A DNA stretch of 64,000 nt from an uncultured Acidobacteriota bacterium (GTDB lineage Bacteria > Acidobacteriota > CAIWXX01): assembly GCA_903916735.1 (NCBI GenBank), contig CAIWXX010000053.1, forward strand, positions 26,260 through 90,259, written 5' to 3'. The translations under genes were made by a program, and so were the position numbers. How positions within the stretch are numbered: the stretch's first letter is position 1; each line of letters starts with the position of its first letter. The notes under the pieces are model-generated. The model did no database searches. It was not told the DNA's origin and saw only the letters and a program-made list of their open reading frames with translations. Shown one piece after another: positions 1 through 13,845 of this stretch.

Positions 1-601
1 ACAACATCAAGAAGCCGCGCTCAGCGGGAAAATTGTCAAACACAATATCCATGATCGTGTTCAGCACCTGATCCAGTGGCTGCACTTTGATGATGGATTC
101 GACGACCTTGGTTAGGAATTTGAGCGCGTTATATTTTTTCCGAAGGTCCATCCCTTCCGGAGTGAGGACTGCAGCATGACGCGCAAGAGAACCATCCTCA
201 GATGTATCCTCGGTGCCATAAGCTTTGACGATATCGCCGACGGACATGATGTATGTGCCAACGCCGGAATCGAGTGGATTCCCTTCGACCATGTGGACGT
301 TCTCTTCGGCGCTGTAGCGTATCTTGATCGGGAATCCGCCGATGAGGATTTCATCCCCGTCCTTCAGAGGGACCTCAACAATGGGGCGCCCGTTAACCTT
401 CGTCCCGTTAAGCGTCCCAAGATCGGCGACTGTGCAACCATCCGGCCCAACTTGGATCCTGCAATGCCTCCGCGAAATCCCTATATCCTGGAGAGTCAGA
501 TCATTGTCTCGCGCACGGCCGATAATGATTTCAGGACGAGTGAGCGCAAAAGTTTTTTGAACCCCTTTATCCTGATAGATGAGCGTATACATCGATGTTT
601 T
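1..601 (-). CDS. FHA domain protein (N-terminal FHA, then start of a GAF-like domain). 3' end lies outside the window. Not in the ORF track because it has no in-window stop.
   Basis: Reverse-strand translation from ATG at 601: MYTLIYQDKGVQKTFALTRPEIIIGRARDNDLTLQDIGISRRHCRIQ...NGTKVNGRPI (FHA signature G-R...SRRH...NGT), then ...MDLRKKYNALKFLTKVVESIIKVQPLDQVLNTIMDIVFDNFPAERGFLML running off position 1. Confidence 0.7.
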
Positions 602-933
602 TAATAAGGTCTTTCCGCCACTTGATATCTTATCAACCGATCAATGTCCAAGCAAATGGAAACGCTCTTATCCGCCGGCATTGAGTTTGACGATGAGATT
701 CTTTTCTTTTCGAAACAGCAGAGAGGGGCCTACTCTCGCTCCCCTCATCTACATCGCGGCACCTCTGCAGCGACCGACCGTCCACTCAACTGACTGAGCA
801 CGACTCGGGAGATCGGACAATTTATTGAGACGCCGCGTGGTCATGGGAAGACGCTCCGATTCATGCCTCGACACCCCAACAGACTCGAATCCATATTGGG
901 GATTCTGCTCTCACACATTGATCTGCCGGTTTT

Positions 934-11062: not shown

Positions 11063-13120
11063 CTAGCCGCCGGCTGTACGCTGGAAACGACACTTCCCCC
11101 GTCGACCGTCCTGCGTTGTGAAACTCCCATCGATCGCATCCCCATGCACTCCTCCTGCAACTCGAATGACATTGAAGGGCGAGACGGCAGGAAGGTTGAT
11201 CTCAACTCGAACGTCACCGCCGAGTATCAATCGGCCTTGAACGCCATGGATTGTCGGGGGAGACCAGCGAATCCCCTGCGGCCGGATTTCCTCAATCAAG
11301 GCGGTACCACTGAGGGATGCTCCATGCTGATTGAGTTCTAAGCGCAGATGATGCCTAACATTCTCGCCCTCCGATGAGAAGATATTCTCAAGTTCGCCGT
11401 CCCACCGACCAGACACTGAGCCAAAGCTGGAGGGTATCTCCCAAGAGGCCTCCTGGATCTGATCTCGTTCACCGACCGTGAGCGTCTGAACATCATCGGC
11501 TCCAGGACATCCCATCCCTCCAACTTCGATGTTGCGATCATGAAGCCGCTGAAGCACAATCCGCATTCCCGACGAGGACGGAAGAATCGATGGCACCTGC
11601 CCCTTGCCAAAGAGATTTAGCAGCTCGTTGAGAACCATCACATTCCAATACGGTATCATGATGGATTCTCCTGAGAATCGACTACGGCTCTTGGCGAGTG
11701 CAAGCGACGCTACAGTCCACCGGGCAGCTTCAAGAGAGCCGCTGAGAGAGCCGCCGAGCGCGGTGAGAGCAGGAGCCGATCCTGCCTCTCGGACCTCAAA
11801 CCTCACAGTCGGGTCGGTCTGTGCCTTCTGAAAAGCCGTCTGGAGAGCCTGAATGGTTTGCTGGATATTTCTCGGTCGTGGAGCTCCGGCAGCAGACGGC
11901 GGAGGACCTTCAACAAAAAGCGCCGTACCGAGCGGATGACGGATCTCCCATACTCTATCCGCAATATAGGATGCTGTGAACTCCATGGCATAGCACGGGG
12001 CATCGCGCGGGCGGATCTTCATCATCACTGGAGGCGACGACCAGTCACTCATGCGCACTTCAATTTGAGCATCCACGGTCGAATTTCGCGTGATCACAGG
12101 GACACGGCACTGTATCAATACCGGCGTCGAACTGATGACAGGAGCGCTCATCTGACCGATCTGGATCCGAACATTATCCGGTGTCGCAGTGAAGCCTGTC
12201 CCTTCGATGCTGACTGTCTCCCCGACGGCCGCCTGGATGGGGTTAACATTCCGTATCTGCGGAACAACATCATATTGGATCGGTTGTTCAAAAAGAATAA
12301 TGCCTTTCTTCTCGACACGGACAACAGTGGATCGGGTGCCGAGTTCTCCGCTTTCCAATTCCGGCACCGTCAGCTGTATCTCTCCAGGTGTCATTGAATC
12401 GATCCTGGCTTCATGCCCTTGGATCAGGATCTTGAGATTTGAAGCCGGAGTGATCTCAGGCCCTCGCAGTGTCATCTTCCAACCGGATTGCACCTTGAGC
12501 GGTTCAACGCGGACGGACTGCCACGACTTTTGAGTCGTCTGCGTACCGACAACAAACCAGATTCCGATTGCAACGGCGGCCAGGACAGCGCTTCCCAGCG
12601 GGATCCACACAACTGGTTGCTTGAAAAAATGAAAGAACCCCTGCCGGGTAGGGGTCACTGAAAGCGCCCGGGGCACTTGAGATTCAGGCGGAGAAACCGC
12701 TCCGGCGACCGCCGGAATCAAACGACTAGAAATGACCCCGGATGAAGTCGCCGGCTTCTCATCCTCGGTCAATGCATCCAAGAGAACAGTGCTGGGATCT
12801 TCAAATTTGAGGAGAAGAGGAACCGCCTCTTTCGTCTGGCCGACGCGCACAGTGTCTCCAGACCGCAATGTGATGCGTTCCTGAATCCGGCGATCATTCA
12901 CCCACGTTCCGTTGGCAGTCTGGAGGTCTTCGATATGAACACCGGATGCATCGCAATAAATGCGAGCATGCTGACGTGACACCGAGGGATGCGGGATGAC
13001 TATTTCGCACACAGCCTGCCGCCCGACTTTTAACTCCTGCCCGGGCTCAATCTCATGTGTCCGCAAAGCAGTGGCATTTTCGAGGACAAGAAAACGAGGG
13101 TTCAGACTCCGGGGTTTCAT
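11063..13120 (-). CDS. sctD: T3SS inner-membrane ring protein SctD-like (YscD/PrgH family): cytoplasmic FHA, one TM, periplasmic domains including an IPT/TIG-like fold
   Basis: N-terminal FHA (KVGRQAVCEIVIPHPSVSRQHARIY...TANGTWVNDRRI). TM VVWIPLGSAVLAAVAIGIWFVVG. IPT-like NVNPIQAAVGETVSIEGTGF. Last gene of the T3SS cluster, translationally coupled (ATGA) to the FHA gene upstream. Confidence 0.6.
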   Translation of the reverse strand: MKPRSLNPRFLVLENATALRTHEIEPGQELKVGRQAVCEIVIPHPSVSRQHARIYCDASGVHIEDLQTANGTWVNDRRIQERITLRSGDTVRVGQTKEAVPLLLKFEDPSTVLLDALTEDEKPATSSGVISSRLIPAVAGAVSPPESQVPRALSVTPTRQGFFHFFKQPVVWIPLGSAVLAAVAIGIWFVVGTQTTQKSWQSVRVEPLKVQSGWKMTLRGPEITPASNLKILIQGHEARIDSMTPGEIQLTVPELESGELGTRSTVVRVEKKGIILFEQPIQYDVVPQIRNVNPIQAAVGETVSIEGTGFTATPDNVRIQIGQMSAPVISSTPVLIQCRVPVITRNSTVDAQIEVRMSDWSSPPVMMKIRPRDAPCYAMEFTASYIADRVWEIRHPLGTALFVEGPPPSAAGAPRPRNIQQTIQALQTAFQKAQTDPTVRFEVREAGSAPALTALGGSLSGSLEAARWTVASLALAKSRSRFSGESIMIPYWNVMVLNELLNLFGKGQVPSILPSSSGMRIVLQRLHDRNIEVGGMGCPGADDVQTLTVGERDQIQEASWEIPSSFGSVSGRWDGELENIFSSEGENVRHHLRLELNQHGASLSGTALIEEIRPQGIRWSPPTIHGVQGRLILGGDVRVEINLPAVSPFNVIRVAGGVHGDAIDGSFTTQDGRRGKCRFQRTAGG

Positions 13121-13845
13121 GAGAGGAGTATGATGATGAGCAGCACAATGGCGCCAAAGAGAGTCACAATGCCAACTGCCTGGAAGACAAATGCCCAGAT
13201 CCGGTAAGCATCGGTCCCTGACGGAAAATCCAGCGTCTGCGCGAGGGCTGAAGGGGGAGTCATCGCGTGGCCATCAAAAGCCGGGCGCGGGGCCACGGGA
13301 ACGTTGCCAATCGGTGTCCCGACACGATGATCATCAATCTGCATCGAGGATGACCGGTAGACGCCCGTCTGGATCTCCCACATCGTTGCAGGCGCATCGG
13401 ACATGTCCGGCTCCGGAGCTGCCGGCTGCAAACGGGGAGTTGCGGCGGATGGCGGCGGCGATTGCAAAGGCGCTTTTGGCTGCGGCGCCGGGGGCGGAGG
13501 GGGAGCCGGTGTCGCTTCGAGGATCGTCGCATCAGGTATGGCTTCCTCAATCCAACGCGCTCGAATCTCGACCGTGCCGATGTGGACGACATCATCGGAT
13601 TTCAGCGCGTGAATCGTCTTGGACGGCAACACCTCGCCGTTAACGACAATTCCGTTTGTACTCCCGAGATCTTCAACGAGGAGATGCGCCCCCTGTCGAC
13701 AGAAACGGCAATGCCGGCCTGACACAAAAGAAAATGGGAGCTGGACATCGTTGCCTTCACGCCGGCCGATGAAGGCCATCTCCTTTTGAAATGTGAGCGT
13801 TTGGCTCCGTCCATCCGGGTTTCGAATCGTCAACTCAAGTGACAC
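13117..13845 (-). CDS. FHA-domain protein, Pro/Ala-rich linker, C-terminal tail anchor
   Basis: FHA: MAFIGRREGNDVQLPFSFVSGRHCRF...STNGIVVNGEVL. PPPPAPQPKAP low-complexity. C-terminal TM IWAFVFQAVGIVTLFGAIVLLIIILLS. Confidence 0.7.
   Translation of the reverse strand: MSLELTIRNPDGRSQTLTFQKEMAFIGRREGNDVQLPFSFVSGRHCRFCRQGAHLLVEDLGSTNGIVVNGEVLPSKTIHALKSDDVVHIGTVEIRARWIEEAIPDATILEATPAPPPPPAPQPKAPLQSPPPSAATPRLQPAAPEPDMSDAPATMWEIQTGVYRSSSMQIDDHRVGTPIGNVPVAPRPAFDGHAMTPPSALAQTLDFPSGTDAYRIWAFVFQAVGIVTLFGAIVLLIIILLS

Follow-up and report, generated by a model that had tools for sequence, protein, structure and literature searches.

The SctD proteins of injectisome-type type III secretion systems (T3SSs), among them YscD, PrgH, MxiG and EscD, are inner-membrane ring subunits with an N-terminal cytoplasmic domain of the forkhead-associated (FHA) fold and a single transmembrane (TM) helix, followed by a periplasmic part that contains three ring-building motifs (alpha-beta-beta-alpha-beta). 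They assemble into a 24-mer ring around SctJ that touches the secretin and SctK. All injectisome SctDs keep the FHA fold, although that of MxiG lacks the canonical residues and no longer binds phosphothreonine (pThr); it has been speculated that FHA function was lost progressively as T3SSs evolved (PMC3162421). A genuine-looking FHA domain is found in the chlamydial T3SS inner-membrane protein CdsD (CT664/Cpn0712), which is phosphorylated by PknD in vitro (PMC2765968). In the type VI secretion system (T6SS), PpkA, PppA and the FHA scaffold Fha1/TagH provide the model for pThr-gated assembly. Here we describe a T3SS locus of an uncultured Acidobacteriota bacterium, contained in a stretch of 64,000 nucleotides (assembly GCA_903916735.1, contig CAIWXX010000053.1, positions 26,260 to 90,259; hereafter the window, whose own numbering is used throughout), that ends with a pair of FHA genes behind sctV. 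We propose that this pair encodes dedicated parts of a lineage-specific, non-flagellar T3SS that dock onto pThr written by an unlinked Hanks-type kinase, and that a cyclase gene and an RsbW-like gene in the vicinity are unrelated to it; taken as a whole, this reading has in our view about an even chance of being correct. The genes on which it rests are as follows.

11063 to 13120, minus strand: 685-residue bitopic FHA-TM-TIG protein, last gene of the T3SS operon
13117 to 13845, minus strand: 242-residue tail-anchored FHA protein (Pfam FHA 61.7 bits, E = 8.8e-17)
13971 to 16166, minus strand: sctV (FHIPEP; PF00771, 747.9 bits), always ahead of the FHA pair
20180 to 21757, minus strand: 525-residue SctQ with an added N-terminal FHA domain (107-173) and a C-terminal SpoA/FliN domain (444-517)
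11063 to 32367, minus strand: the whole T3SS locus

Pfam and NCBIfam matches account for each of the core genes sctJ, L, N, O, P, Q, R, S, T, U and V. SctV of the window scores 598 bits against an injectisome SctV (7alw) and 402 bits against FlhA; it is thus nearer to the former, and the system is therefore non-flagellar.

FHA domains and phosphothreonine-binding residues

The initial annotation, made from the DNA sequence alone, had called four FHA domains within 22 kb, and all four exceed the PF00498 gathering cutoff of 20.7 bits by a wide distance. The scores are 72.5 bits (E = 3.8e-20) for the 685-residue protein, 61.7 bits for the 242-residue protein, 70.0 bits for SctQ and 72.2 bits (E = 4.8e-20) for a reading frame at the start of the window (2-601, minus strand). 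The four domains are therefore real, but only three of them, those of the operon pair and of SctQ, are functionally linked.

Binding of pThr by FHA domains involves the motifs GR, SxxH and NG (PMC3162421). In the family of the 685-residue protein, G33, H51 and G71 are invariant, and R34, S48 and N70 are at least 90 % conserved. In a 23-sequence alignment of the family of the 242-residue protein, G27, R28, S42, H45, S62, T63, N64 and G65 are all invariant. For SctQ, both GR and SxxH occur in the window copy and in five of five relatives, and NG is likewise found in all five relatives, while the window copy reads N-R at this position. All three operon FHA domains retain the phosphate-contacting Arg and Ser together with the motif His and Asn and are, by their residues, canonical. 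Since these residues are kept, pThr-dependent docking is the most likely mechanism for the three proteins, and control of secretion by pThr through an unlinked kinase is a reasonable expectation. To this extent the argument of the initial annotation for such control stands, in view of the conserved pair and its pThr residues, but no kinase is linked to the operon.

The suggested comparison with CdsD proved apt, as the best match of the FHA domains was CdsD, followed by the pThr readers FhaA, GarA, EmbR and DgcB. Like the 685-residue protein, CdsD is a T3SS inner-membrane protein, and it places two FHA modules at the cytoplasmic face, which are divided here between two proteins. The systems differ in three respects: chlamydial T3SS clusters encode the kinase Pkn5, whereas no kinase is linked to the window locus; FHA-2 of CdsD lacks the conserved Arg (PMC3162421), which all three FHA domains here keep; and CdsD is treated as a YscD ortholog (PMC2765968), whereas the 685-residue protein fails the SctD family model. 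The FHA domain of SctQ adds to these differences, and we know of no FHA domain in a chlamydial SctQ. SctQ of the window matches FliMN_C at 36.9 bits and TIGR02551 at 52 bits, the latter under its cutoff, and the FHA-SctQ family comprises 19 clusters, three of which carry an organism name, in each case Acidobacteria or Acidobacteriota.

The 242-residue protein was described in the initial annotation as a tail-anchored FHA protein with a Pro/Ala-rich linker, translationally coupled to its neighbour, and this description was borne out throughout. The FHA domain (residues 1-100) is followed by T107-x-x-E110, the Pro/Ala-rich linker, the motif PATMWEIQTG (152-161) and a C-terminal TM helix at about 216-241, so that the hydrophobic helix makes up the last 25 or so residues. 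The coupling takes the form of an ATGA overlap between the TGA stop codon of this gene and the ATG start codon of the 685-residue gene. T107 and E110, a few residues past the FHA domain, are at least 90 % conserved in the 23-sequence alignment, and PATMWEIQTG is also conserved in the small family; both motifs are candidate docking or phosphorylation sites. The small FHA partners encoded at other loci are all tail-anchored, and in the most divergent operons (those of loci L015 and L013, introduced below) the tail anchor of the small-partner slot is better conserved than the FHA domain.

As a stand-alone FHA protein encoded in a secretion operon, the 242-residue protein resembles the T6SS scaffold, and TagH/VI_FHA is its best secretion-related NCBIfam match; JGI labels some of its relatives as T6SS components. 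The match to the TagH/Fha model TIGR03354 reaches 46.6 bits against a cutoff of 120.25, however, and the genomic context is a T3SS, so that membership in TagH is not indicated. Further differences from the T6SS are the machine itself, the tail anchor, and the location of kinase and phosphatase outside the window cluster. FHA domains are also held at the cytoplasmic face of the membrane in GltG of Myxococcus xanthus and in FhaB/FipA and Rv1747 of Mycobacterium tuberculosis. The window FHA domains match FhaB/FipA and, more weakly, GltG, but these matches cover the FHA region only, lie far below the cutoffs and concern different machines.

Conservation of the FHA pair behind sctV

A block of sctV, an FHA gene of about 220-400 codons (or a 131-residue tail-anchored reading frame) and a gene for an FHA-TM-(TIG)-C-terminal-module protein ends T3SS operons in 12 independent loci besides the window (L001, L002, L003, L004/L008, L005, L006, L007, L009, L010, L013, L014 and L015), one of which lies on a 4.5-Mb contig. 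Their large proteins are about 27-49 % identical to the 685-residue protein of the window. With the window counted, the gene stands directly after sctV in 13 of 14 independent contexts. This gene order marks the FHA pair behind sctV as part of the T3SS. The genes on the far side of the large FHA gene differ at each related locus (PatA_N in L001 and L002, AAA_14/PPK2 in L008, PGI in L009, an ABC ATPase in L010, SelR in L014 and Yip1 in L015), and the operon therefore ends at the 685-residue gene.

All named sources of the block are Acidobacteriota, including Thermoanaerobaculia and "bacterium HR11", and a scan of a genome collection returned five loci, each from an Acidobacteriota metagenome-assembled genome (MAG) and none from a cultured organism. 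No Myxococcota homologs of the 685-residue, 242-residue or FHA-SctQ proteins were found by word-indexed protein searches and the genome scan. Among the papers searched, none describes this Acidobacteriota arrangement, and in the databases the proteins carry no label beyond "FHA domain-containing protein".

A related pair is encoded in a MAG of Candidatus Schekmanbacteria (GCA_016188575.1; L011, 10001-13035, and L012). In its large protein (P0191, 832 residues), two FHA domains precede the TM helix, behind which come TIG and the same C-terminal module as in the window; a 174-residue tail-anchored FHA protein is encoded after it, and a Plug/TonB-receptor-like gene lies nearby. The two modules that are separate in the window are fused in this homolog, and this arrangement connects the two FHA modules functionally. 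An apparent fusion of the small and large proteins in L007 (9605-12898, a frame of 1098 codons) was rejected, as the joining stretch is Arg/Pro-rich, out-of-frame sequence without a tail anchor; a frameshift error in a long-read-like assembly of a GC-rich genome is the likelier origin.

Large PatA_N (DUF4388) proteins are encoded a short way behind the FHA gene of about 700 codons in L001 (14991-17369, minus strand) and L002 (12421-14910, plus strand). In L002 the PatA_N gene follows immediately, whereas in L001 an unannotated gene for an 848-residue protein stands in between. The window encodes a 217-residue PatA_N protein as well (62181-62834, minus strand), 49 kb away.

The 685-residue protein and the SctD slot

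An AlphaFold2 model of the 685-residue protein, built with 25 homologs (mean predicted local distance difference test score, pLDDT, 85), predicts a cytoplasmic FHA domain (1-119), a disordered acidic and Pro-rich linker (119-168) and a single TM helix (172-197). The predicted periplasmic part consists of an immunoglobulin (Ig)-like domain (204-285), an IPT/TIG domain (287-370), an alpha/beta domain (374-567) and an avidin-like eight-stranded beta-barrel (571-681). The IPT/TIG domain, already recognized in the initial annotation, matches PF01833 over residues 287-363 at 48.9 bits. The alpha/beta domain had no fold match in the PDB. The C-terminal module (372-685) is rare, with 40 matches in 1.84 billion representative proteins; nine of the ten examined bear an FHA domain and eight also TIG, and one protein (P0028) carries the module behind TIG repeats without FHA domain or TM helix.

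The initial annotation had named this protein an FHA-SctD. The FHA domain and the topology of an SctD, with a cytoplasmic FHA fold, one TM helix and periplasmic domains, are indeed present in the model; the gene lies in a T3SS operon with SctJ, and there is no other SctD candidate, as Pfam and NCBIfam detect no canonical sctD in the locus. The family assignment itself did not hold. Against the NCBIfam SctD model TIGR02500 the protein scores 18.6 bits (E = 7e-4; cutoff 86), and the alignment covers only residues 26-193, from the FHA domain to the TM helix, at profile positions 19-150 of 413. A PDB search with the family profile retrieved no SctD chain at E ≤ 1. Matches to the Pfam model Yop-YscD_cpl were rejected as evidence for SctD, because this model matches the other three FHA proteins (the cyclase, the 242-residue protein and SctQ) as well and hence reports the FHA fold only. 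In contrast to SctD, the 685-residue protein retains the pThr residues that MxiG does not (PMC3162421), its periplasmic part consists of Ig, IPT/TIG, the unmatched domain and the avidin-like barrel in place of the three ring-building motifs, it is about 300 residues longer, and its gene stands after sctV and not upstream of sctJ. From the profile matches and the model, it is best described as filling the slot of SctD with another kind of periplasmic half, a topological stand-in that is not demonstrably an SctD.

A proposed mechanism and its alternatives

In the mechanism that we propose, the FHA domain of the 685-residue protein would lie under the export gate in the cytoplasm, its helix would cross the inner membrane, and the Ig/TIG/alpha-beta/avidin-like array would point outward into the periplasm. 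The 242-residue protein would be held in the same membrane by its tail anchor, on the cytoplasmic side, and expose a second FHA domain through its flexible Pro/Ala linker, while SctQ, the sorting platform protein, would bear the third. A Hanks-type kinase encoded elsewhere and acting in trans would phosphorylate Thr in a disordered linker or in another T3SS protein, a candidate site being the near-invariant TxxE just after the FHA domain of the small protein. By binding pThr, the FHA domains would connect the SctQ pods to the membrane ring, and assembly or secretion would thereby be turned on. Recruitment of partners through pThr in disordered linkers is known for Rv1747 and FhaA, and PpkA/Fha1 of the type VI system and PknD/CdsD of Chlamydia would be parallels at the level of the secretion machine.

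Of the elements of this proposal, the domain content, topology, residue conservation, synteny and narrow taxonomic range are observed, whereas pThr binding, its target, the formation of a ring and the trans-acting kinase are inferred. Several observations weigh against it. The first concerns the kinase: Pfam found no Pkinase, PP2C or SpoIIE domain in the large open reading frames (ORFs) of the window, and phmmer searches of all six-frame ORFs of at least 60 residues with the PknB kinase domain and PstP found nothing in the window, as the initial annotation had stated. A Metallophos protein (52688-53632) was considered as a PPP-type Ser/Thr phosphatase and rejected, since the GDxVDRG and GNHE motifs are absent. 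The gene tables of the flanks, which the initial annotation had singled out for such a search, list no kinase or PP2C gene in the roughly 7 kb beyond the left end of the window or in the roughly 3 kb to its right. Among the 14 independent related loci, a Hanks kinase is encoded within 10 kb in one (L002). This Pkinase-TPR gene lies 5 kb downstream and is the sole kinase seen near these operons. Second, the small partner is not uniformly an intact FHA protein: that of L015 (8802-10004, 400 residues) has a degenerate FHA domain without NG, and that of L013 (3387-3782, 131 residues) is tail-anchored but has no FHA domain. Third, the Gly, His and Asn-Gly of the FHA motifs are partly structural, and their conservation alone is no proof of phosphate binding; the FHA fold of Shigella MxiG works without pThr (PMC3162421). 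Finally, no ring-building motif was found in the periplasmic part of the 685-residue protein. The Schekmanbacteria pair, moreover, has no T3SS gene within 10 kb, so that the FHA pair may be a portable module for signalling and not part of a ring.

The lack of a linked kinase or phosphatase in 13 of the 14 independent related loci, taken with the MxiG precedent, would also fit a T3SS in which no kinase is involved. The 685-residue protein would then be a highly diverged SctD, and all three FHA domains would be phosphorylation-independent modules that build the ring and tether the SctQ pods. SctD topology, the want of another SctD in the locus and the weak TIGR02500 match from FHA domain to TM helix are consistent with such an origin, as is the divergence of SctD families past sequence recognition (PMC3162421). 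However, conservation of the phosphate-contacting Arg and Ser extends across families at 27-58 % identity, whereas MxiG, the canonical case that has been characterised, lacks the full set, and the periplasmic region matches no SctD by sequence or by fold. We regard a diverged, phosphorylation-independent SctD as a rather unlikely explanation.

The Schekmanbacteria pair raises a different alternative, in which the FHA pair is a portable TM sensor that was captured as a regulator. Its periplasmic array would bind a cell-wall, prey or surface cue, the FHA domains would relay the signal, and the true outer ring of the inner membrane would be absent or consist of SctJ only. Avidin-like barrels and IPT/TIG domains are typically ligand- or surface-binding folds, P0028 shows that the C-terminal module can occur without FHA domain and TM helix, and the position of the pair at the 3' end of the operon would suit a captured regulator. 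The placement of the gene directly after sctV in nearly all independent contexts speaks for a closer tie to the machine, and a T3SS without an SctD-like partner of SctJ would be unprecedented among injectisome-type systems, with sctD among the earliest acquisitions (PMC3459982). A captured sensor is accordingly unlikely, and dedicated T3SS components that dock through pThr remain our preferred reading.

A more far-reaching form of the latter is distinctly doubtful in our judgement: the system would have no canonical SctD ring, the Ig/TIG/unmatched-domain/avidin-like component would stand in its place, and the three FHA domains would make assembly of the sorting platform strictly pThr-dependent. 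If true, this would be the first T3SS with a core architecture wired to Hanks-kinase signalling, and it might preserve an ancestral state that gave rise to the silent FHA fold of present-day SctD. The lineage bears on why injectisome SctDs have all kept this fold, as a natural system in which it may still perform its original job. If it does, the system would show kinase gating of sorting-platform assembly and bear on whether canonical FHA function was lost in T3SS evolution. The domain calls themselves are ordinary; what is unusual is the combination of three canonical FHA domains at T3SS core positions, a replaced periplasmic half in the SctD slot, and a domain without a solved relative. That the periplasmic half of this slot is replaceable by unrelated domains matters for how secretin-less and environmental T3SSs span the envelope, and T3SS detection tools that require SctD could mis-score such loci.

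Neighbouring signalling genes

Two further genes of the window were, by implication, counted in the initial annotation as parts of the same circuit.

2 to 601, minus strand: N-terminal 200 residues of an FHA-GAF-class III nucleotide cyclase (Pfam PF00498; full form on sister contigs)
9563 to 10000, minus strand: 145-residue RsbW/SpoIIAB-like GHKL protein of the anti-sigma Ser kinase type (HATPase_c_2)

The first had been reported as a 5'-truncated FHA-GAF gene. It lies on the minus strand with its start codon near 601/592, so that the 3' end is cut and the C-terminus of the protein is lost at the window edge. The FHA domain was confirmed, whereas GAF is undetectable by Pfam in the 200 residues held by the window and becomes visible only in the full-length protein of sister contigs with identical genes, which has 543 residues and the order FHA-GAF-Guanylate_cyc. 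On these contigs, outside the window, the 3' neighbour is an overlapping dCache_1-HAMP-HD (HD_5) gene, past which an HDOD-HD protein and a GAF-PAS hybrid histidine kinase are encoded. Together, the cyclase, the dCache-HAMP-HD protein, the HDOD-HD protein and the GAF-PAS kinase form a dense second-messenger signalling neighbourhood.

The assignment of the second gene was correct, with HATPase_c_2 matched at 87.7 bits (cutoff 27.4); the protein is SpoIIAB/RsbW-like but stays under the NCBIfam equivalog cutoffs (SpoIIAB, 56.9 against 135; RsbW, 49.2 against 145). No match to STAS (RsbV/SpoIIAA) was found among the neighbouring ORFs.

It could be argued that the RsbW-like kinase and all four FHA proteins work in a single circuit, in which the GHKL kinase phosphorylates the FHA targets and the cyclase couples secretion to cyclic nucleotides. 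All of these genes lie within 22 kb, and the first gene of the T3SS locus encodes a FliA-like sigma factor of group 3, the class to which anti-sigma factors of the RsbW/SpoIIAB type bind. Distance and synteny argue otherwise. The cyclase gene is about 10 kb distant from the T3SS operon, from which it is separated by seven housekeeping genes (gpsA, plsY, ligT, cinA, pgpA, a MiaB-like radical-SAM gene and a class II aminoacyl-tRNA synthetase gene), followed by an alpha/beta hydrolase gene, the RsbW-like gene and a gene of the Mit_KHE1 family. The cyclase gene was not found in the flanks of any divergent related locus, nor was the RsbW-like gene found next to the T3SS in any divergent relative; both adjoin it in near-identical contigs only. 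FHA-GAF-cyclase proteins are moreover widespread, for example in Gemmatimonadota. The chemistry does not fit either, as kinases of the RsbW type transfer phosphate to Ser of STAS partners, whereas FHA domains are readers of pThr, and no STAS gene is adjacent. We consider a single circuit highly improbable. The cyclase is probably an independent second-messenger module outside the T3SS, and both it and the RsbW-like protein are probably unrelated neighbours. With the two genes read as bystanders, three FHA proteins are linked and not four. A link between the orphan RsbW-like gene and the FliA-like sigma factor is conceivable, and synteny gives it no support.

Other features of the T3SS locus

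The remainder of the locus upstream of sctV, assigned with Pfam and NCBIfam, occupies a single stretch.

16293 to 32367, minus strand: T3SS genes upstream of sctV
19807 to 20151, minus strand: fliO (PF04347, 33.5 bits; cutoff 22), between sctQ and sctR
25612 to 26592, minus strand: 326-residue protein between sctJ and sctL
27647 to 28315, minus strand: GNAT acetyltransferase
29347 to 29607, minus strand: 86-residue needle-like ORF
30524 to 31402, minus strand: 292-residue Gly-rich protein
31642 to 32367, minus strand: FliA/WhiG-like group 3 sigma factor
32368 to 32790, minus strand: 140-residue ORF

By descending coordinate, the order of genes in the locus is FliA-like sigma factor, 292-residue Gly-rich protein, TPR chaperone, 67-residue ORF, needle-like 86-residue ORF, HrpB1-like TPR protein, sctI-like gene, GNAT gene, sctJ, 326-residue protein, sctL, sctN, sctO, sctP, FHA-sctQ, fliO, sctR, sctS, sctT, sctU, sctV, 242-residue FHA gene and 685-residue FHA gene. 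The operon as a whole thereby retains the flagellar gene order (equivalents of F-G-H-I-J-K-M/N-O-P-Q-R-flhB-flhA).

No gene for the secretin SctC was found among the ORFs of at least 400 residues in the 64-kb window, and it could lie elsewhere in the genome. The locus may encode a needle or filament despite the lack of a secretin in these 64 kb: the 86-residue ORF has a helical, needle-like C-terminus without a family match, and the last 55 or so residues of the Gly-rich protein weakly resemble SctF (18 bits in Pfam, 15 bits in NCBIfam). In being non-flagellar, in belonging to an environmental non-pathogen, in lacking a secretin and in encoding FliO, the locus resembles the "needleless" T3SS* of M. 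xanthus (MXAN_2434-2464) and the Myxo-type non-flagellar T3SS (NF-T3SS) (PMC3459982, PMC10433427, PMC12403147). The Kil/Tad machinery associated with the Myxococcus T3SS* also uses FHA proteins (PMC10433427). The window locus differs from T3SS* in its needle-like ORFs, whose family matches are weak or absent, and in that the protein and genome searches found no Myxococcota homologs.

FliO has long been regarded as specific to the flagellum, and its homologs are encoded likewise in L001, L002, L008, L009 and L015. Its presence in the NF-T3SS of Myxococcota was reported only in 2025, in work that does not mention an NF-T3SS of Acidobacteriota (PMC12403147).

The 326-residue protein is Trp-rich and apparently soluble, and its gene occupies the FliG/SctK slot. 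No match was found in Pfam, NCBIfam or PDB sequences. It was considered as the true SctD and rejected, given its position in this slot, the lack of an obvious TM stretch and of an FHA domain, and the want of a family or PDB match.

The GNAT gene lies within the operon, between the sctI-like gene and sctJ, and overlaps a long upstream extension of the sctJ ORF. The true start of sctJ is probably an internal Met before the lipoprotein signal (MKKHIWLL...TSC). The sigma factor at the head of the locus scores 110 bits, which is under the subfamily cutoff, and the 140-residue ORF, for which no family match was found, directly abuts its gene.

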